A stretch of DNA of 64,000 nt from a bacterium. GTDB lineage: Bacteria > Bacillota > Clostridia > Oscillospirales > Oscillospiraceae. Below are positions 975 through 63,459 of this stretch, one piece after another (the first letter of the stretch is position 1; each line of letters starts with the position of its first letter). The translations under genes were made by a program, and so were the position numbers. The notes beneath the pieces were generated by a model. That model saw nothing but the letters and a program-made list of their open reading frames with translations. It made no database searches and was not told the DNA's origin. Where the stretch lies: NCBI GenBank assembly GCA_963640475.1, contig CAVHYW010000007.1:561-64560 (forward strand), read 5' to 3'.

Positions 975-1651
975 AGGCCCACCTTCTCCCGGATGATCTC
1001 CAATAGTCTTTCCTTGCTCTGCTGAAAGTCCAGTTCGCTGGTGTCCACGATCACGGCGTCCTCCGCCGCCCGAAGCGGCGCGGCGGAACGGTGGGTGTCG
1101 TTATAGTCCCGCTCCTTCATCTCCGCCAGCACCTGCTCAAAGGGCCGGGGCGTGCCCCGCTCTATAAGCTCCTTTTCCCGGTGGCGGGCACGTACCTCCA
1201 CATCCGCCTGCAAAAAGATCTTCACATCCGCATCAGGCAGCACCACGGTGCCGATATCACGGCCATCCATGATGACGCTGCTCCTGCGGGCAAAGTCCCG
1301 CTGCATCTCCAGCAGGAACGAGCGCACCTCCGGGATGGCCGACACCGCCGAGGCGTACAGCGACATCTCCGGCAGGCGGATCTCCTGCGTCACGTCCTCG
1401 CCGTGCAGCAGCATATGCTGCAAGCCCTGTTCGTCATAGCGCATCTCGATCTTCACCTGTGGCAGCAGGCCGATCACCGCCTTTGTATCGGCAGCGTCCA
1501 CCCCCTGACGGCGGGCATAGCAGCCGATGGTGCGGTAGATGGCACCGGTGTCCACATATAAGATATGCAGCTCCGCCGCGATGGCCTTGGCCAGCGTACT
1601 TTTTCCCGCGCCGCTTGGCCCGTCCACCGCCACAGAATAGATTTTTTCCAT
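971..1651 (-). CDS. cmk: Cytidylate kinase
   Basis: VDGPSGAGKST, DTGAIYR, MDGRDIGTVVLPDA motifs. Confidence 0.96.
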   Translation of the reverse strand: MEKIYSVAVDGPSGAGKSTLAKAIAAELHILYVDTGAIYRTIGCYARRQGVDAADTKAVIGLLPQVKIEMRYDEQGLQHMLLHGEDVTQEIRLPEMSLYASAVSAIPEVRSFLLEMQRDFARRSSVIMDGRDIGTVVLPDADVKIFLQADVEVRARHREKELIERGTPRPFEQVLAEMKERDYNDTHRSAAPLRAAEDAVIVDTSELDFQQSKERLLEIIREKVGL

Positions 1652-1657
1652 GCTGAT

Positions 1658-2890
1658 TCACTCCCGCTCCGCCGCGGACACACCGGCCAGATGGCCCGTT
1701 GCCCACGCGATCTGTAAATTAAAGCCGCCGGTATAGGCGTCCACGTCCAATACCTCACCGGCAAAATACAGTCCCGCCACCAGCTTGGACTCCATGGTGT
1801 TGGGCTTCACCTCACTGACCTTCACGCCGCCGGCGGTGACGATGGCCTCCGCCACCGGACGCACGCCGGTCACGTTGATGTCAAAATGCTTCAAAAGCCG
1901 GATCAGCGCACGCCGCTGCTCCTTCGTCAGGGAATTGGCCTTCAGCGTCGGGGGAAGGCCCAGCCGCCGGGAGAGCACCGGGGCCATGCTGTGGGGCACC
2001 AGACCGCACAGCAGCTTTTCCACGTCCCGGTTGGGGCTTTCGCTGATGTCCCGCAAAATGCGAGCTTCCAGCTTCTGCTCGTCCAGCGCCGGTTTCAGGT
2101 CGATGCTGAGACGGTACTGCTCTTTTTCCCAATTCCGCAGATGGGCGCTGGCCGACAGCACCAGCGGGCCGGACACGCCGAAGTGGGTAAACAGCATCTC
2201 GCCGAACTCCCGGAACACCGCCTTGTTCTTCTGGTTATAGGCCGTCAGCTCCACGTTTTTCAGGCTCAGTCCCTGCATATGGCGGCAGCATTCGTCGTCG
2301 CTGACCAGCGGCACCAGCGAGCCTCTCGGCTCCACGATGGTATGGCCCAGCGCAGCGGCGATTTTGTAGCCGTCGCCGGTGGAGCCTGTTCCGGGATAGG
2401 AAACGCCGCCGGTGGCGACGATCACCGCGTCGGCGGGATAGGTCTCCTTCTCCCCTGTCACCGCCGTCACATGGCCCTCCGCCGTCTCCACCGCCGTGGC
2501 CCGGTCATGGGCCCAGCGGATATGCAGCGCCTTCACCCGCCGCTTCAGCGCGTCGGTGATGTCGAAGGCGCTGTCGGACACCGGGAACACCCGGTCGCCC
2601 CGCTCCACCTTCAGCGGTACGCCGCAGCTCTCGAAAAACGCCATGGTGTCCCGGCTGGTGAACCGGGACAGGGCGCTGTACAGGAAGCGGCCATTGCGGG
2701 GGATATGGGCCATCAGGCCCTCCAGATCCGTGTCGTTGGTGACGTTGCAGCGGCCCTTTCCCGTGATATTGACTTTTTTGCCCAACCGCTCGTTGGGCTC
2801 TATCAGACACACCTGCGCGCCGCCTTCCGCGGCGGCGATGGCGGCCATCAGACCGGCGGCACCGCCGCCGATCACCGTTACCTTATTCAT
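1658..2890 (-). CDS. HI0933/YhiN/BaiN-family flavoprotein (paralog 1)
   Basis: IGGGAAG, TGKGRCNVTN, LFTHFGVSGP, TAGGV, GEVLDVDAYTGGFNLQIAW; start placed at MNKVTVIG. Confidence 0.9.
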   Translation of the reverse strand: MNKVTVIGGGAAGLMAAIAAAEGGAQVCLIEPNERLGKKVNITGKGRCNVTNDTDLEGLMAHIPRNGRFLYSALSRFTSRDTMAFFESCGVPLKVERGDRVFPVSDSAFDITDALKRRVKALHIRWAHDRATAVETAEGHVTAVTGEKETYPADAVIVATGGVSYPGTGSTGDGYKIAAALGHTIVEPRGSLVPLVSDDECCRHMQGLSLKNVELTAYNQKNKAVFREFGEMLFTHFGVSGPLVLSASAHLRNWEKEQYRLSIDLKPALDEQKLEARILRDISESPNRDVEKLLCGLVPHSMAPVLSRRLGLPPTLKANSLTKEQRRALIRLLKHFDINVTGVRPVAEAIVTAGGVKVSEVKPNTMESKLVAGLYFAGEVLDVDAYTGGFNLQIAWATGHLAGVSAAERE

Positions 2891-25865: not shown

Positions 25866-27209
25866 ATGAAAAAACTGCTGGCATTCCTGCTGGCCCTGAC
25901 GCTGGCGCTGTCTGTGACGGCCTGCGGTCAGGACACGGCAGCCAATGACGAGGAGCCAAGCGTCATCGAGCTGACGCTGTGGACATATCCCGTAGGCGAC
26001 TGGGGCGACAAGGCGGCGGTGGAAAACCTGCTGACCCAGTTCAACAGCGTGTACCCCGACATCCATGTGACGGTACAGTGTCTGGACGAGGCCACCGGCG
26101 ACGACAAGCTCAGTACCGCAGTGGATGGCGGCGTGGCCCCCGATATCCTGCTGGCCCAGCCGGACCGCCTGGTGAAGGGCTGGGGCGCGGAGGGCATGCT
26201 GGCCGACCTGTCCGAGCTGTGGGACGACGCCGACAAGCAGGAGGTCAACGCCGCCTGCCAGAGCGCCTGCTTCACCGCTGACGGCAAGTGCTACGCCTAT
26301 CCCTTCGCCATGAACGTCCAGTGCATGGCCATCAACTACGACGCTTTTGTGACGGCGGGCGCCGACCAGTACATTGATCTGGAGACCCGCACATGGACCA
26401 CCGAGCAGTTCACGCAGGCCGTCAAGGCGCTGTACAGCAAGTACGGCGAGACGGTGGCCGCCGTGTATTGCTCCGGCCAGAACGGCGACGAGGGCACCCG
26501 TGCACTGGTGACCAACCTGTACGGCGGCGCGTTTACCAACGACGCTCACACCGCCTATACCGTAAACGCCGAACCCATCCAGCAGGCGCTGACCCTGCTG
26601 CGGGACACCAAGGGCATCGAGTTTGACGACACCATCAACGGCGACGAGGAGGCCACGCTGTTCTATCACGAATCGCTGAAAATGTCCTTCTGCTGGAGCC
26701 TTGCCCGGCAGACCGCTGAGACCGTGGACGAGCCCACCGAAGAGGGCGCGGAGCCTGTGGTTCACGAGGCGGGCAAGACTGTCAACGGCCAGACCATCGA
26801 GTTCATGTCCTTCCCCTCCGAGACCGGCGAGAGTCGTCTGGAGGGCGACATCTGGTGCTTCGGCGCCTTCGATAACGGCGATCAGGAGAAGCTGGAGGCT
26901 GCCAAGCTGCTGATCCGCTACTTTGCCGACGGTCAGGGTACTTCCGCCGCCGTGAAGGCTGCCGGCTGCTTCCCCGTCCGCTCCACCGCCGACGGTGCGA
27001 GCCTGTCCGGCATCTGGAGCGGCAGCGACGTGATGCAGGAGTACGGCAAGCTGACGGAGCAGCTGGGCAACTACTACCAGCTGACACCCGGCTGGGCCAC
27101 CGCCCGCACCGAGTGGTGGAACCTGCTGCAGCGCATTGAAAACGGCGGCGACGTGGTGATCGAGACCGACACCTTCGTGGACAACGCCAATGCCGCGGCA
27201 AGAGAATAA
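25866..27209 (+). CDS. Extracellular solute-binding lipoprotein (carbohydrate/CUT1-type), orphan
   Basis: Lipobox VTAC, LTLWTYP, APDIL, DGKCYAYP, WTTEQF. Confidence 0.85.
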   Translation: MKKLLAFLLALTLALSVTACGQDTAANDEEPSVIELTLWTYPVGDWGDKAAVENLLTQFNSVYPDIHVTVQCLDEATGDDKLSTAVDGGVAPDILLAQPDRLVKGWGAEGMLADLSELWDDADKQEVNAACQSACFTADGKCYAYPFAMNVQCMAINYDAFVTAGADQYIDLETRTWTTEQFTQAVKALYSKYGETVAAVYCSGQNGDEGTRALVTNLYGGAFTNDAHTAYTVNAEPIQQALTLLRDTKGIEFDDTINGDEEATLFYHESLKMSFCWSLARQTAETVDEPTEEGAEPVVHEAGKTVNGQTIEFMSFPSETGESRLEGDIWCFGAFDNGDQEKLEAAKLLIRYFADGQGTSAAVKAAGCFPVRSTADGASLSGIWSGSDVMQEYGKLTEQLGNYYQLTPGWATARTEWWNLLQRIENGGDVVIETDTFVDNANAAARE

Positions 27210-27315
27210 TGAAATTCGGCGCTGCCGAATGAAATATGCCGCGCATATGAAATCCAGCCGCAGGCTGGATGAAATCACCCCTTTCGGGGTGGAAAATGTG
27301 TCCCTTCGGGACATT
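27209..27315 (+). repeat. Array of 4-5 short hairpins joined by GAA (ATGAAAT junctions)
   Basis: ATGAAAT at 27209, 27229, 27247 and 27269, each followed by a different palindrome. Confidence 0.7.
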
Positions 27316-33874: not shown

Positions 33875-33944
33875 TCTTCTTGTTCACCTCCATGAGATTT
33901 TGCGGTACACCTCTGTGTACCATGGGAAACGAGGTGCGTTCTTA

Positions 33945-34053
33945 GAGAAAAAACCATCCCCATGCCGGAAAGACATGAGGATGGTGTCAGCAATCATGAA
34001 ATATTGCCATCCTCGGCAGGATTTACGGCTTGCGCCACCTGCTGTCTTTGGAA
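33945..34053 (-). ncRNA. L10 leader RNA with attenuator
   Basis: ccaaagacagcaggtggcgcaagccgtaaatcctgccgagg core, then terminator ccatcctcatg...catggggatggtttttt upstream of rplJ. Confidence 0.8.
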
Positions 34054-34063
34054 CGCATCTAGT

Positions 34064-34092
34064 ATTATATCCATTGCCGGACAGCTTGTCAA
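34064..34092 (-). promoter_or_regulatory. Consensus sigma-A promoter for rplJL
   Basis: TTGACA-N17-TATAAT on the minus strand. Confidence 0.85.
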
Positions 34093-38370: not shown

Positions 38371-38463
38371 ACCTTATCAAGAGTGGCGGAGGGAACGGCC
38401 CAATGAAGCCACGGCAACCTGTTTTTCAAGGTGCCAAATCCGACGTTGAATCGAAAGATGAGG
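38371..38463 (+). ncRNA. SAM-I (S-box) riboswitch
   Basis: cttatcaagag..ggcggagggaacggcccaatgaagcc.cggcaacc...ggtgccaaatcc...aagatgagg; terminator at about 38481-38515; upstream of metK. Confidence 0.93.
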
Positions 38464-38551
38464 AAAGAGCAAGAAAGTTCAGCACTCTGTCGGTTCAGGC
38501 AGGGCGCTTTTTTTGTTGCACATTTCCGAGAATTGAAAGGAGATCAAAATT

Positions 38552-58075: not shown

Positions 58076-59719
58076 TTACCAGCTCTGGGAATCGTCGAAC
58101 TCCAACAGGGAGGGATCCAGCGGTTCCTCGTGCATGACGGTGGTCATATAGTCGTTGATGATGGTGCGGATCTCCGCGCGGGAAACGTTGCGCTTGTCGG
58201 GCAGAGCGTGGGGCATCCAGATGGCATGGATGTTGCGGGCGCGGAACTCGTCCTCGAACAGGCCGTGAACGCCCTGCATGCCCTTGCACAGCAGCTGGTC
58301 GTACATCATGACCATGTCGCAGTGGAACCGCTCCATATTCTCCCACAGCTCGAAGATGTGGTGCATGCCGCCCACGGCCATGCGCCGCATGGGCGCCCAC
58401 TCGTGATACGTCGCCATATCCTCCAGCGTATGCTCGTAGCTGTCGGTGCGGAGGGTCATGTCGAACATCAGGGAGTCCATGTTGATGATGGTGTTCAGGC
58501 CCCAGCAGTTATAGGCCCAGGTGCACCAGTTGGAATAGTACAGGGGCGCGCAGGACCATGCGATGACGCGGTGGCGGGTCATCGGGAAGTTGTTGATGCG
58601 GTCCTCCACGCACTTCTCCAAAATCTTGCGGACCTTCTTGTCGGTCTCGTGCCAGATGGGCAGGTCACCGTACTGGGACTGATAGATGCGGTACAACGCC
58701 TGAGACACGCCGTTGATGGGATAGAAGTTGGTATTGGCGGCCACGTCCCACTTCTCCCACTCGAAGCGCTGCAGCTCGTTCTGGCTCTCCAGCTTCTTCA
58801 CCAGCTGATCCCAATCGAACTTGGTGCCGGTCTGCTCCTCGATGAACTTCCAAGCCTCCTCGATCTCCTTCTGGCAGTGCTTCTGCACCAGGGGATCGTC
58901 AAACTGCATGGGCTGCGGCATGGCGAACAGGGGCTTGTCCATCAGCCAGTCCTGCAGAATAGAGGTGGCCACGGAGCCGTCGCAGGCCTCGTTGGAGGTG
59001 ATAACGGCCTTGTAGTAATCGGGCACATCGTCCAGCACGAACAATCCCGCCTCCGCCTGACACATGGGGCAGGGGTCGCCGGGCAGGCCGATGGACTGCA
59101 CCGCGTCGATGTAGTTGAGAACGGTGTGGTTGTTGACGTGGCAGGTGACGAAATAGGGGATCATCTGCAGGGGAACATTCTCGTTCTCCTTGCTGAAGGG
59201 ATAGAAGATGCCGCCCCAGACGGTCTCGTCATGGGCCATGGTCTTGTCGTGGCGGGCCTTGGCCTTCTTGCCCTTCTGGATGTTCAGGTCGTTGGAGAAC
59301 ATCTGCATGAACTGATAGATGGTGGCGTTGGTCATGGCACGGTAGTGCAGCGGGCAGGCGCGCAGGGCTTCACCCCGCAGGCCCTCCATGCCGCGGTCGA
59401 ACCAGTGCAGCACGGGCAGATAGGTCTGGCCCATCCAACGGTAGCGCCAGCAGCCTTTGGCAAAGGTGATGAGACCACCGTAGCGCATCACGTCGTACAC
59501 CATCATGCCGTAGTTATACATCCACACATGGTGGAAGTAGTAGAAGGTGTCCTTCACGCCGCGCCACTCACGGTGCTTGTAAAGGCCGGTCTTGTCGCAG
59601 TACAGGTCGCCCAGACGGCGCTCGCCATGGGGCTTGCCGTACCAAAAATCCTTTGCCAGCTTCTTATAATCCACGCTCTTGGCCTTGGCCAATGCGCCTT
59701 TCAGATCGATCTTTTTCAT
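58076..59719 (-). CDS. 2-hydroxyacyl-CoA dehydratase family subunit (alpha-like) with N-terminal extension
   Basis: DPCPMC, SNEACDGS, FIEEQTGTKFDWD, QLLCKG. Confidence 0.8.
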   Translation of the reverse strand: MKKIDLKGALAKAKSVDYKKLAKDFWYGKPHGERRLGDLYCDKTGLYKHREWRGVKDTFYYFHHVWMYNYGMMVYDVMRYGGLITFAKGCWRYRWMGQTYLPVLHWFDRGMEGLRGEALRACPLHYRAMTNATIYQFMQMFSNDLNIQKGKKAKARHDKTMAHDETVWGGIFYPFSKENENVPLQMIPYFVTCHVNNHTVLNYIDAVQSIGLPGDPCPMCQAEAGLFVLDDVPDYYKAVITSNEACDGSVATSILQDWLMDKPLFAMPQPMQFDDPLVQKHCQKEIEEAWKFIEEQTGTKFDWDQLVKKLESQNELQRFEWEKWDVAANTNFYPINGVSQALYRIYQSQYGDLPIWHETDKKVRKILEKCVEDRINNFPMTRHRVIAWSCAPLYYSNWCTWAYNCWGLNTIINMDSLMFDMTLRTDSYEHTLEDMATYHEWAPMRRMAVGGMHHIFELWENMERFHCDMVMMYDQLLCKGMQGVHGLFEDEFRARNIHAIWMPHALPDKRNVSRAEIRTIINDYMTTVMHEEPLDPSLLEFDDSQSW

Positions 59720-60912
59720 CAGTTGTTCCCTCCCTGGATCTTCTTGATCTCCACGCTCTCGATAAACGCCTGGAAGCGGGTACGGAGCTGACCGGAGGCG
59801 GAATTGATATACTCCTTCTCAATGGAGCAGACGGGGTAGCCGAAGTCGCGCTGCAGCACCACCGTGTCGATGACGCGCTCATAGCTCCAATACTCACAGA
59901 ACTTGTTGGAGGCAATGATGATGCCGTCGGCCTTGTATTCCTTTGCCATGTCGGCAATGACCTGCTTGCGGTGGCGCATTTCGTTCTGCTCCATGAAGCG
60001 GGTGCACTGGCTGGTCAGCAGATAGTGGCGGGCGATGGCGCGCAGAGGTGTTTCGCCGCCCTTGATCTCGATGGGCTGACGGGCCTCGGCCGCGCCGTAG
60101 CAATAGCGGTCGCCCACCACGCGGGCGCCGCAACTCTCAATGAGCTTGATGAAATCGGGATCGTCGTTCTCGCTGCCGGCCAGCACCACCTTGCAGCGGA
60201 ACTCCTTCTTGGCGTCAGGCTGGCGGGTACGCATCTCCTCTGCCGTTTCGCGGAGCTTGTCGATGATCAGGTACTTGGGACATGTCATGGTAGCCAGCGT
60301 GATGACGGAGAACTCATAGCCGGTGATGGTGGGGTTATCCAGCTTGCGGTAATCGCCGATCTCCTGCACCAGACGGCAGACCTCGTTGTGTTCCTCGATA
60401 GTCTTGCGCAGCGCCTCGTCGGAGGTATCCACGCCGTAGTTGTCCCGCAGGAAGTCCAGCACATGAGCCTTCAGCTGGCCCTCATAGTGGTCGATGGAGT
60501 TCTGGGTCTTTTTGAAGGGCACGTCCATGAAAGAACACTTGAAGCGCTCGTTCTGGATCACGTCCTGCATCCGCTGCAGATGCTCCTGGAACCGGCAGGT
60601 GACGGTACACGTCTCGGTAGCCAGCTGGGCGTCCAGGAAGTTGAAGCCGCCCTCCAGCGCCCGCTCCAGCAGGCTGCGGCCATAGTGGCAGGTACGGGAC
60701 GACATGTAATAGGTCGCCATGTCGGGCGAGGCGCAGCGGGGCGCCCGCAGACGCACGCTGAAACAGCCGGGCAGATCCAGCAGTACCTCCGGCATGAAGT
60801 AGCAGGTGTACCCCAGCGCCAGCTTCCCTTCGTCCTTGGCCTGCTTGACGAGGTCGTTATTGGCCTCCTGCAGCAGGTTCTCGAAATAAATCAGATGCTT
60901 CAGATCCCTCAT
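59719..60912 (-). CDS. 2-hydroxyacyl-CoA dehydratase family subunit (beta/D-like)
   Basis: GYTCYFMPE, TCHY, VVGDRYCYG, KADGII...KFCEYW, GQLRTRFQAFIES. Confidence 0.88.
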   Translation of the reverse strand: MRDLKHLIYFENLLQEANNDLVKQAKDEGKLALGYTCYFMPEVLLDLPGCFSVRLRAPRCASPDMATYYMSSRTCHYGRSLLERALEGGFNFLDAQLATETCTVTCRFQEHLQRMQDVIQNERFKCSFMDVPFKKTQNSIDHYEGQLKAHVLDFLRDNYGVDTSDEALRKTIEEHNEVCRLVQEIGDYRKLDNPTITGYEFSVITLATMTCPKYLIIDKLRETAEEMRTRQPDAKKEFRCKVVLAGSENDDPDFIKLIESCGARVVGDRYCYGAAEARQPIEIKGGETPLRAIARHYLLTSQCTRFMEQNEMRHRKQVIADMAKEYKADGIIIASNKFCEYWSYERVIDTVVLQRDFGYPVCSIEKEYINSASGQLRTRFQAFIESVEIKKIQGGNN

Positions 60913-61112
60913 TGTGTTCCTCCTTAACGCCGCATAACACACAAAGCGGTATTTTACGAAAAAATTATACATAATTGCAGATTTTTTGTCAATAAATTTG
61001 TGCTTTTTATACAGAAAATGCACAGATTTCGTAAATATGTCTGTTATTTGTCATTTGACTTACCCACGGCGGCGTGGTAGAATAGGAAAAAAATGAAAGC
61101 GAGGGCTTTTCC

Positions 61113-61406
61113 ATGTGCGGTCACGAACACGAACACACCCATGCCGACGGCACCACCCATACCCATTGCCACACCCATGACCACGATCACGAGCATTGCC
61201 ACGAGCATCAGCACCACTCCCCCGAGGAGGCGCTGGCGCTGCTGGCCTATATGGTGCAGCACAACCGCCACCACGCCGAGGAACTGCACGAGCTGGCCCA
61301 CAGCATGGATGACGAGGCCGCTCAGCTGATCCACGATGCCATTCTGGACTTCAATCTGGGCAACGAAAAGCTGGACGAGGCCCTGAAGCTTCTGAAGGGA
61401 GAATAA
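61113..61406 (+). CDS. His-rich metal-binding protein (putative Ni/Co chaperone)
   Basis: His-rich N-terminus; LLAYMVQHNRHHAEEL helical C-domain. Confidence 0.75.
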   Translation: MCGHEHEHTHADGTTHTHCHTHDHDHEHCHEHQHHSPEEALALLAYMVQHNRHHAEELHELAHSMDDEAAQLIHDAILDFNLGNEKLDEALKLLKGE

Positions 61407-61411
61407 AAACC

Positions 61412-61600
61412 ATGTGCCTTTCCACTGTTTACACCCTGAAGGGTGACGAGAAGAAAGAAGTCTGCAAGAATGTGGCCTCCATGAAGGTCGAGGGCGATAC
61501 GCTGGTATTCAGCGATATTCTGGGCGTTCCCACCGCCGTGGTGGGCACCATCGAGAAGATCGACCTGATGGAGAACATGATCTTTGTGCGGCAGAACTGA
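61412..61600 (+). CDS. CooT-family nickel-binding protein
   Basis: MCLSTVY (Cys2), DILG, IEKIDL; 62 aa. Confidence 0.85.
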   Translation: MCLSTVYTLKGDEKKEVCKNVASMKVEGDTLVFSDILGVPTAVVGTIEKIDLMENMIFVRQN

Positions 61601-61714
61601 ACCAAACAAAAAAGAAGGTCGGATGCGTTGCATCTGACCTTCTTTTTTGTTTTTAGAACGGCCTCCGGCGGCCCACTTTTCACTGTGTGGCGGAAGGAGC
61701 TCCTGCGCTGTTCG

Positions 61715-62047: not shown

Positions 62048-63313
62048 TTATCGCTTTACCACTTCACGACCGTCCGACCAGACGGATACGATGTTGTGGC
62101 GGTGGGTCATGTAGATGATCCGCTCGAACCGCTCCTCTACGCTGAGGGGATAGCTGGCCTCTGGAAAATCGGCGTCGTCCACCACGATGGCGTGGAGCTT
62201 GTCGCCCACAGCGAAGCCCTCACCCGCGCCGAAATACTTGTGGCCGGAAGTGGTGCCCAGATAGTAGCCCTCGCCCACCGTCAGGAAGTCGGTGTGCCAG
62301 TCGTCGCTGATGCGGCGCACCTTGGAGGTGCGGATGGACATGGCGATGACCTTGTACATGGGCAGCTGTGCGCCGCCGGCAATGTCGCTGCCCAGCGTGA
62401 CCCACAGGCCCTCGTCCAGCATCCGCCGCACCGGACATACGCCGGAGCAGATGTTGACGTTGGAGTCGCCGCAGTGGACAACGACCACGTTGGCATCCTT
62501 GATGGCCTTGCGCTCCACCGCGTCGGAATGGACGCAGTGTGCCATCAGGGTGTGATCCTTCCACAGGCCGTACTTGTCGTAGGTCTCCCAGTAGCGTTGG
62601 CACTCCGGGTGCAGTTCCTGCACCCACTGGATCTCGCCCATACTCTCGGACAGGTGGGACTGGACGTACAGCCCCTTTTCCCCGGCGATGCGGCCCAGCG
62701 CCGCCATCAGCTCGTCGGTGCAGCTGGGGGTAAAGCGGGGGGTGATGATGGGCTTCACATGCTCAAAATGGCAGCCCTCCAGCCAGCGCAGCGTCTCACG
62801 GACGGACTCCTCCGTGGTCTCCTGCAAAACGCCGGGCAGGCCGTTGCGATCCATGTTCACCTTGCCCACATAGCCGGTGACACCCGCCTTTTCCAGCTCC
62901 TCCATCAGCACCCACGTCGCCTCGGTGTGCAGCGAGGAGAACATGGCAACGCGGGTGGTGCCGTTGGTAATGAGGTCGCTGGCCAGCCGCTGATAGGTGC
63001 GGCGGGCATAGTCCAGATCAGCAAACCGGGACTCGGTGGGGAAGGTGTAGGTATTCAGCCAGTCCAGCAGCGGCAGATCCATGCCCATGCCCAGCATGGG
63101 GTACTGGGGTGCGTGGAGGTGCATGTCGGCAAAGGACTGCATGATGAGCTTATCGCCGTAGTCCCGCAGCGGGGCGTGGGCGTAGCAATCCGGCAGCGTG
63201 TGGTAGACCCCGGCGATGACGCCGTCCTCCAGCACCAGAAAACCGTTTTCGGTAATGTCCATCCGGCCCAGCGCCGGGGCGTGGACAATGTGGCCCTTCA
63301 AGACCTGTATCAT
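62048..63313 (-). CDS. guaD: Guanine deaminase-like amidohydrolase
   Basis: DMHLHAPQY, LLDWLNTYTFPTE, NGTT, ITPRF, QSHLSE, MAHCVH, LGSDIAGG. Confidence 0.85.
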   Translation of the reverse strand: MIQVLKGHIVHAPALGRMDITENGFLVLEDGVIAGVYHTLPDCYAHAPLRDYGDKLIMQSFADMHLHAPQYPMLGMGMDLPLLDWLNTYTFPTESRFADLDYARRTYQRLASDLITNGTTRVAMFSSLHTEATWVLMEELEKAGVTGYVGKVNMDRNGLPGVLQETTEESVRETLRWLEGCHFEHVKPIITPRFTPSCTDELMAALGRIAGEKGLYVQSHLSESMGEIQWVQELHPECQRYWETYDKYGLWKDHTLMAHCVHSDAVERKAIKDANVVVVHCGDSNVNICSGVCPVRRMLDEGLWVTLGSDIAGGAQLPMYKVIAMSIRTSKVRRISDDWHTDFLTVGEGYYLGTTSGHKYFGAGEGFAVGDKLHAIVVDDADFPEASYPLSVEERFERIIYMTHRHNIVSVWSDGREVVKR

Positions 63314-63334
63314 GGAACGATCCCTCTTTTCAGG

Positions 63335-63380
63335 CAAAATAAAATGAGTGCCCCGCCGCCCATTGCGGCAAAGCACTCAT
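63335..63380 (-). terminator. Riboswitch expression-platform terminator
   Basis: atgagtgctttgccgc-aatgg-gcggcggggcactcat followed by tttattttg; the 5' arm overlaps the P1 3' strand. Confidence 0.75.
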
Positions 63381-63441
63381 AGTGGCGTCACCGGTGACGC
63401 CGTAGAAACGCCGTACCCCGTCGCGGCACGGCTATATGAGT
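63375..63441 (-). ncRNA. Purine (guanine-type, C74) riboswitch aptamer with variant loops
   Basis: P1 actcata/tatgagt, P2 gccgtgcc/ggtacggc, J2/3 gtttctac, P3 ggcgtca/tgacgcc, J3/1 AC; upstream of guanine deaminase. Confidence 0.85.
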
Positions 63442-63459
63442 TTTCTTATATACGGGTTT

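Follow-up and report, generated by a model that had tools for sequence, protein, structure and literature searches.

A guanine-type riboswitch with a reduced L2-L3 clasp, predicted to switch on a guanine deaminase gene in Oscillospiraceae

Most guanine riboswitches are OFF switches, and canonical guanine aptamers also bind hypoxanthine and xanthine. ON logic is known from the pbuE (ydhL) adenine switch of B. subtilis, whose terminator uses the P1 3' strand in its 5' arm, and a portion of P3 as well, so that a ligand-locked aptamer blocks termination.

The L2-L3 clasp of guanine riboswitches is a textbook tertiary motif. It has been described as holding two base quadruples, one of G37-C61 and U34-A65 and the other of G38-C60 and A33-A66; their eight bases are called strictly conserved, and binding is lost when both loops of the xpt aptamer give way to UUCG tetraloops (PMC1802621). 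The 2'-deoxyguanosine (2'-dG) aptamer of M. florum has a short L3 that keeps G37-C61 and G38-C60 and still binds its ligand, with a weaker, Mg2+-requiring clasp that was termed unique among purine aptamers in 2011 (PMC3159443). Guanine-I aptamers are tied mainly to biosynthesis and transport genes, and the 8-oxoguanine (8-oxoG) class, from Paenibacillaceae, is ON-wired, has lost U47 and precedes purine-catabolic genes (PMC10556655). The xanthine-II class is also ON-wired before purine-catabolic genes, and insertions in J2/3 and J3/1 give the xanthine-II and guanine-II variants (PMC9295807).

The leader described in this work lies in a 64,000-nucleotide stretch of an Oscillospiraceae genome (GCA_963640475.1, contig CAVHYW010000007.1; hereafter the window, to which all positions refer unless another locus is named). 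Based on its sequence and on modelled folds we propose, with a probability of roughly 0.7, that it is a guanine-type purine riboswitch acting as a transcriptional ON switch (by guanine-induced antitermination) for a guanine deaminase gene (guaD). The same guanine pocket would then be used oppositely to the textbook OFF switch, with a predicted induction of guanine breakdown in gut Oscillospiraceae, including about 30 species-level relatives. Neither the sensor class nor the ON logic is new. What has no description in the CC-licensed PMC and bioRxiv literature that we searched is the link to this gene: we found no report there of a guanine-type riboswitch before a guanine deaminase, and the excerpts of PMC7373994, PMC9430930 and PMC3519856 describe none either.

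The window aptamer shares with guanine-I (RF00167; B. subtilis xpt-pbuX) the P1-P2-P3 junction, U22, A23, the J2/3 segment GUUUCUAC, A73, C74 and the GG/CC loop bases, and differs from it in an L3 of 4 instead of 7 nt (A64-A66 are missing), in free L2 positions 33/34 and in a possible extra G-C pair at the base of P2; unlike the xpt-pbuX aptamer, it is predicted to be wired ON, and it precedes a catabolic gene and not genes of biosynthesis, salvage or transport. With pbuE it has in common the P1 3' strand in the terminator 5' arm (a layout that is ON in pbuE and predicted to be so here), whereas it carries C74 in place of the U74 that reads adenine, precedes a deaminase gene instead of an efflux pump gene, and has a terminator that starts in P1 only, while that of pbuE reaches into P3. 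The M. florum 2'-dG-I aptamer resembles it in the short L3, the lost quadruples and the retained G37-C61 and G38-C60 pairs (PMC3159443), but has a changed pocket, swapped P2/P3 lengths, OFF logic and a ribonucleotide reductase gene, whereas the window pocket is canonical, with P2/P3 of 8/7 bp. The 8-oxoG and xanthine-II classes are likewise guanine-I derivatives, ON-wired through an aptamer-overlapping terminator before catabolic amidohydrolase or oxidation genes (PMC10556655, PMC9295807); they combine altered pockets with canonical loops, whereas the window combines an unchanged pocket with reduced loops and a guanine deaminase gene.

Architecture of the leader and its gene

A covariance-model search with the Rfam Purine model (RF00167) matches 63459-63360(-) with 48.0 bits, against a gathering threshold of 37 (E-value 5.7e-5 for the window and 5.7e-7 for the genome), and a search of the whole 2.58-Mb genome returns this leader as its only Purine match. 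The leader folds with a z-score of -4.1, and 0/200 shuffles fold as well. Aptamer, terminator and gene are all encoded on the minus strand (Table 1); a preliminary description of the locus had placed every feature correctly and left the strand unstated. Its claim of an intact ligand core (U22, J2/3 GUUUCUAC and C74) is borne out by the RF00167 alignment, in which the junction is of canonical guanine type, with U22, U47, U51 and C74, and with J2/3 of 8 nt and J3/1 of 2 nt, as in the Rfam consensus. The adenine-riboswitch base U74 is absent (C at 63382), as are the mark of the 8-oxoguanine class (loss of U47, here present at 63408) and the junction insertions of xanthine-II and guanine-II.

The deviant periphery noted in the same description was also found as reported (L2 GCGACGG, L3 CCGG and J1/2 UA, with GG/CC kept and the loop adenines lost). 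The quadruple bases A33 and U34, with A65 and A66, are not found: L3 CCGG has no A65/A66, and L2 positions 33/34 are C/G in the window and variable among homologues. Judged from the alignment, the L2-L3 periphery is reduced, with L2 retaining only A35, Y36 and GG, and the tertiary clasp has probably been left with nothing more than the two G-C kissing pairs; a tetraloop L3 on a canonical guanine pocket is unusual. As for the helices, P2 and P3 had each been described as one pair longer than usual, which may hold for P2, where the G after A23 can pair with an extra C (G63432-C63410) to give 8 bp and shorten J1/2 to UA, and does not hold for P3, whose 7 bp equal the Rfam consensus.

Table 1. Features of the guaD leader, in window coordinates
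Feature	Position	Strand	Remarks
Promoter-like TTGCAA, 17-nt spacer, TATCAT, TG before the -10	63488-63460	-	consensus match alone, 9/12
Purine (guanine-type) aptamer, P1 to P1	63375..63441	-	RF00167 alignment and covariation
P1 5' strand ACUCAUA	63441-63435	-	pairs with 63381-63375
U22, A23	63434, 63433	-	RF00167 alignment
P2 5' strand GCCGUGCC	63432-63425	-	
L2 GCGACGG	63424-63418	-	Rfam consensus AAUAUGG
GG of L2	63419-63418	-	predicted kissing partner of L3 CC
P2 3' strand GGUACGGC	63417-63410	-	
J2/3 GUUUCUAC	63409-63402	-	U47 at 63408, U51 at 63404; identical to Rfam consensus
P3 5' strand GGCGUCA	63401-63395	-	
L3 CCGG, 4 nt	63394-63391	-	consensus CCGUAAA; 3-nt deletion in Rfam alignment
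P3 3' strand UGACGCC	63390-63384	-	
J3/1: A73, C74	63383, 63382	-	C74 is the specificity base
P1 3' strand UAUGAGU	63381-63375	-	common to terminator 5' arm from 63380
Intrinsic-terminator-like hairpin, 16 pairs	63380-63344	-	5' arm begins inside P1 3' strand
U-tract UUUUAUUUU	63343-63335	-	directly after hairpin
Shine-Dalgarno-like GAGGGA	63321..63326	-	7 nt before ATG at 63313
Guanine deaminase homologue, amidohydrolase type, 421 aa	63313-62048	-	TIGR02967, Pfam Amidohydro_1

The gene had been called a guanine deaminase, and it does encode a homologue of that enzyme: TIGR02967 matches over its full length (E 3.4e-94), and the closest solved structure is PDB 2i9u (a Clostridium-type chain, E 1.1e-102), with human GDA (2uz9) at E 6.7e-68. 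The TIGR02967 score of 316.1 bits is under the curated cut-off of 375.4, so the substrate is not certain; nevertheless, guanine deaminase is the best family (the 8-oxoG deaminase model NF006055 gives only 73.8 bits) and guanine is, on this assignment, most likely the substrate. The gene appears monocistronic, the next genes being convergent. Among these neighbours, 61113-61600(+) holds two ORFs, a His-rich one of 97 aa and, after it, a CooT-like one of 62 aa (PF10133, E 4.1e-18), beside which there is a long palindromic terminator-like hairpin (61607-61649), and a double-cubane-cluster reductase homologue (NF040772, E 5.7e-42) adjoins these ORFs at 59719-60918(-). Elsewhere the genome encodes xpt (TIGR01744, 205.9 bits), one NCS2 permease and two molybdopterin hydroxylase large subunits, located on contigs C24, C23 and C55.

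A search of sequencing runs gave four matching runs (word shares 0.06-0.15), all of them as contigs. One contig of 388 nt, from a metatranscriptome library, covers 63064-63451 at 16 differences from the window and runs across both the terminator and the start codon; it comes from a relative about 96% identical, has a depth of 3 and is possibly DNA, and is therefore evidence of neither transcription nor read-through, although its end at 63451 gives a weak hint in favour of the promoter-like site. At 63349 and 63377 (T>C on the plus strand) the window differs from all four matching runs and from most species-level relatives. With these changes, pairs of P1 and terminator that are U-A or A-U in the window appear as G-U or G-C variants. 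Both competing helices are slightly stronger in the window strain.

Conservation and covariation among homologous leaders

In order to collect homologues, we scanned species genomes (one genome per species) with a degenerate pattern (TATA, GG, GTYTCTAC, a 7-nt arm, CCGN, a 7-nt arm, ACTA). This gave 86 loci, 33 of them with a guaD-like gene starting 57-138 nt downstream. Thirty of the 86 form a close clade (labelled mostly as Oscillospiraceae or Clostridiales MAGs) in which guaD is 69-98% identical in amino acids to the window enzyme and the aptamer lies 57-81 nt before the start. The remaining guaD-like loci are two from Anaerostipes (L040 and L049), with a 40%-identical guaD, and L110, with a 25%-identical amidohydrolase. 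The alignment comprises the window and 28 clade loci, L108 and L114 having been left out because they do not differ from L107 and L061 in the part compared. All of these sequences are kin, from one lineage, and the counts given below overstate their independence.

Across the 25 distinct aptamer sequences, 99.5% of cells are paired and ten pairs change on both sides, namely seven of the eight P2 pairs and three of the seven P3 pairs; in P1, five of the seven pairs are invariant and two vary on one side only. None of 500 shuffles reaches this covariation on any of five measures, and slid controls give 28-55% pairing. U22, U47, U51, A73, C74 and the J2/3 and J3/1 lengths are invariant, J2/3 and J3/1 (ACTA) being partly fixed by the pattern, and within J2/3 the third base alone varies (U or C). 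The L2 GG and L3 CC are also invariant (CCG of L3 is fixed by the scan pattern), and since they never vary the kissing pairs are without covariation support. L2 positions 2-3 are free to vary, which is what the loss of their partners in L3 would lead one to expect. The pair closing L3 is A-U in 16, G-C in 8 and G-U in 1 of the 25 sequences; in a sister group from metagenomes the same position holds a G-A mismatch. The extra P2 pair is G-C in 24 and G-U in 1, which makes it possible, though too uniform to show covariation.

For the terminator, with 29 distinct sequences, 93.7% of cells are paired and six pairs change on both sides, and the T-rich run that follows the hairpin is kept in all 29 aligned leaders. 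A base shared by both structures (alignment column 69) pairs both ways, as U-G or U-A in P1 and as G-C, G-U or A-U in the terminator. The loop changes are therefore not strain-specific decay: 30 of the 86 pattern loci share the design before guaD, with covariation.

Predicted switching and competing readings

The seven bases of the P1 3' strand (UAUGAGU, 63381-63375) are claimed by both the aptamer and the sole terminator, in agreement with the mutual exclusion that had been described and with a layout like that of pbuE. The minimum-energy fold of the leader has P2, P3 and the full terminator, without P1. For the 116-nt leader, the terminator state is at -56.2 kcal/mol versus -51.2 kcal/mol with the aptamer forced, so that the terminator fold is 5 kcal/mol more stable when the ligand term is omitted, as it is in both values; forcing the aptamer still leaves a 10-bp upper hairpin in the best fold. 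When the leader is folded in steps of increasing length, P1 is in the best fold at 72-96 nt and is lost from 100 nt, by which point the terminator 3' arm (...CACUCAU), whose sequence duplicates the P1 5' strand, has been synthesised and displaces it. All 29 leaders behave in this way: at full length the minimum-energy fold contains the terminator and lacks P1, at 72 nt the fold contains P1, and the energy gap is 1.5-9.1 kcal/mol (median 4.6); the pbuE-type platform (a single terminator with the P1 3' strand inside its 5' arm) is also kept in 29/29.

In the mechanism that we propose, guanine in the junction would lock P1, leaving the 10-bp upper hairpin, which would stand 6 nt from the U-tract and should not terminate. 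RNA polymerase would then read into guaD, and excess guanine would be deaminated to xanthine. The prediction of antitermination rests on this displacement of the upper hairpin from the U-tract and on what is known of intrinsic terminators and of pbuE. Its reverse, in which the ligand would favour termination or block translation, has general precedent in its favour, as most guanine riboswitches are OFF switches and, according to PMC10556655, guanine-I is mainly linked to biosynthesis and transport genes. Nevertheless, no second terminator or anti-terminator was found between the aptamer and the start codon, and the sole terminator needs the P1 3' strand, so that a closed P1 removes its lower 6-7 pairs; the Shine-Dalgarno-like GAGGGA, in turn, is unsequestered in the predicted folds, and guanine repressing a guanine-degrading enzyme would make little physiological sense. 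We regard an OFF switch as very improbable.

A different question is whether the aptamer binds at all, and if so what. Without A65/A66 it could bind poorly, given that xpt loses binding when UUCG takes the place of both loops entirely (PMC1802621), and the adenines of both quadruples are missing here; additionally, its score is in the lowest third of the family sample described below (48 versus up to 83 bits). One could thus conceive of a decayed, non-binding aptamer, the hairpin being a constitutive or a protein- or NTP-controlled attenuator before guaD. Against this stands the conservation: P2 and P3 stay paired in 99% of cells, through compensatory changes, while the guaD orthologues behind them go down to 72% amino acid identity, which is unlike an unused aptamer, and decay would not preserve the invariant core bases and GG/CC, or the P1/terminator competition of 29/29 leaders. 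Such decay seems to us quite improbable, and somewhat less so is the same ON switch with another purine as ligand (hypoxanthine, xanthine, 2'-deoxyguanosine or a modified guanine), the periphery and the extra P2 G-C shifting specificity. Canonical guanine aptamers already bind hypoxanthine and xanthine, the J1/2 of the window is shortened to UA by a G-C pair absent from the Rfam consensus, and a look-alike aptamer with U47 precedes an 8-oxoguanine deaminase equivalog in L110. L3 shortening is, moreover, otherwise known from the M. florum 2'-dG aptamer, whose pocket has G24 (PMC3159443). However, every ligand-contacting position of the window is canonical and is invariant in the 25 distinct homologues, the published changes of specificity alter pocket positions (PMC10556655, PMC9295807), and the gene's substrate is most likely guanine, which together make another ligand unlikely.

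Returning to the guanine-induced ON switch, the reduced clasp may itself have a role. A trimmed clasp would weaken the pre-organisation of the aptamer and perhaps raise the guanine threshold, which would suit a catabolic gene. More generally, a lineage of guanine-type aptamers might have dropped both base quadruples, the CCGN tetraloop and two kissing pairs being an adaptation to catabolic ON switches (weak pre-organisation, a high guanine threshold and a short kinetic window); we consider this idea doubtful, although, if true, it would account for the location of most aptamers with a fully paired 7-bp P3 and a 4-nt L3 upstream of purine deaminase genes. The locus also lets one ask, in a natural setting, how much of the L2-L3 clasp an aptamer requires. 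If guanine is bound with only two tetraloop kissing pairs, it would be a minimal purine aptamer for structural biologists, and, if the ON reading is true, engineers would gain a compact guanine-ON part whose platform works by simple strand displacement. The interest rises if the trimmed clasp proves to tune affinity; the lesson for annotation is smaller, because Rfam already finds the aptamer.

Purine aptamers and guaD genes in other genomes

The preliminary description had suggested that standard models may score this aptamer poorly and had assigned it to a structurally distinct subclass; both claims come out weaker or without support. The window (48 bits) and the 12 of 12 clade members tested (45.2-56.0 bits) exceed the gathering threshold of 37, as do all 20 short-L3 loci tested, these 12 among them, although canonical relatives reach 60-83 bits. 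L040 and L049, with CCGA loops, score 65-70 bits, so that the lower clade scores are mostly due to L2 and to the G+C-rich helices. As for the subclass, the periphery alone differs, a shortened L3 has precedent (PMC3159443) and short L3 loops also occur before xpt and pbuX.

Of the 33 loci in the species genomes that have a fully paired 7-bp P3 and a 4-nt L3, 31 lie before purine deaminase genes and come from several Clostridia lineages. When metagenome contigs were scanned with a looser pattern, at least 119 loci were obtained, at least 41 of them with a guaD-like start within 200 nt; among the matches listed, the combination of a fully paired 7-bp P3 and a 4-nt L3 occurs in 31 loci, and 27 of these are linked to guaD. 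We nevertheless rejected the notion of a short L3 confined to guaD, since aptamers with a P3/L3 shorter by 3 nt also precede xpt, pbuX and nupC; canonical 7-nt L3 aptamers, in turn, precede more distant guaD homologues of the same family. In two Weissella loci (L043 and L096, ~1578-1676(+)), a fully paired 7-bp P3 with a CCGA tetraloop L3 lies before a xanthine permease gene (pbuX). We also considered a third inter-loop pair, between L2 position 36 and L3 position 3, which is possible in 32 of 38 closed-P3 short-L3 aptamers (L2 was unparsed in 15 of the 105 distinct short-L3 aptamers); it is unsupported, as in the 8 cases where the L3 base is not G just 2 still pair.

In a sample of 151 genomes from the same family as the window, there are 48 Purine matches in 41 genomes, and 12 of these matches (the window's included, in 10 genomes) precede guaD homologues. 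A guaD homologue is found in 42 of the 151 genomes, with at least 60% identity in 8. Four of these 8 have an above-threshold aptamer, one has a sub-threshold candidate and 3 have no detectable aptamer within ~500 nt upstream, from which it follows that the switch is dispensable. In the 40-46% identity class of guaD, 0/16 upstream regions have a Purine match, and the 20 regions upstream of guaD homologues without a known match hold one sub-threshold candidate (L134) and nothing in the other 19. The one genome sampled from the same genus (98% complete) shows neither the aptamer nor a guaD gene.

The nearer guaD leaders have a 6-nt L3 (CCGAAA, GCCCAA or ACCUAA) and the same wiring of the terminator into P1, so that the 4-nt loop of the window is the end of a series and not an isolated accident. 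The P1 3' strand also lies inside the terminator 5' arm in the distant guaD leaders L007, L118, L121, L040 and L049, and in L110, before the 8-oxoG deaminase homologue; wiring of this kind is widespread. The aptamer of this last locus (L110:1578-1675(+), also seen in L194) is guanine-I-like, with U47, a CCGC/CCAC tetraloop L3 and the terminator-in-P1 wiring, and the ORF at 1704-3056 of L110 passes the 8-oxoguanine deaminase equivalog model NF006055 (574.8 bits, cut-off 532).

Several other leaders deserve mention. The sub-threshold candidate, L134:488-596(+) (genome G098), is purine-like (29.3 bits, E 0.4, below the Rfam threshold) and precedes a 63%-identical guaD; it has a 19-nt insertion in the P2/L2 region, GUUUCUAU as J2/3 and a short L3, and would be missed by standard annotation. 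Tandem purine-type aptamers ~80-170 nt apart occur in L023 (G094), L018 (G107) and L017 (G104), those of G094 and G107 before guaD homologues of 44-46% identity. Several of these tandem aptamers, and the single ones of L024, L120 and L128, have a 3-nt J3/1 (for instance CCC or UGC before UAUAAG) instead of AC, which recalls the J3/1 insertions of the published xanthine-II/guanine-II variants. Just downstream of the guaD orthologue of an Oscillospiraceae MAG, an OLE RNA match (RF01071, 97.3 bits) lies at L035:3077-3257(+), cut by the end of the locus. In the window itself, the other Rfam matches above gathering are a SAM riboswitch at 38371-38464(+) (81.9 bits), a ribosomal protein L10 leader at 33942-34069(-) (66.2 bits) and a Gut-1 RNA at 27207-27280(+) (54.2 bits).
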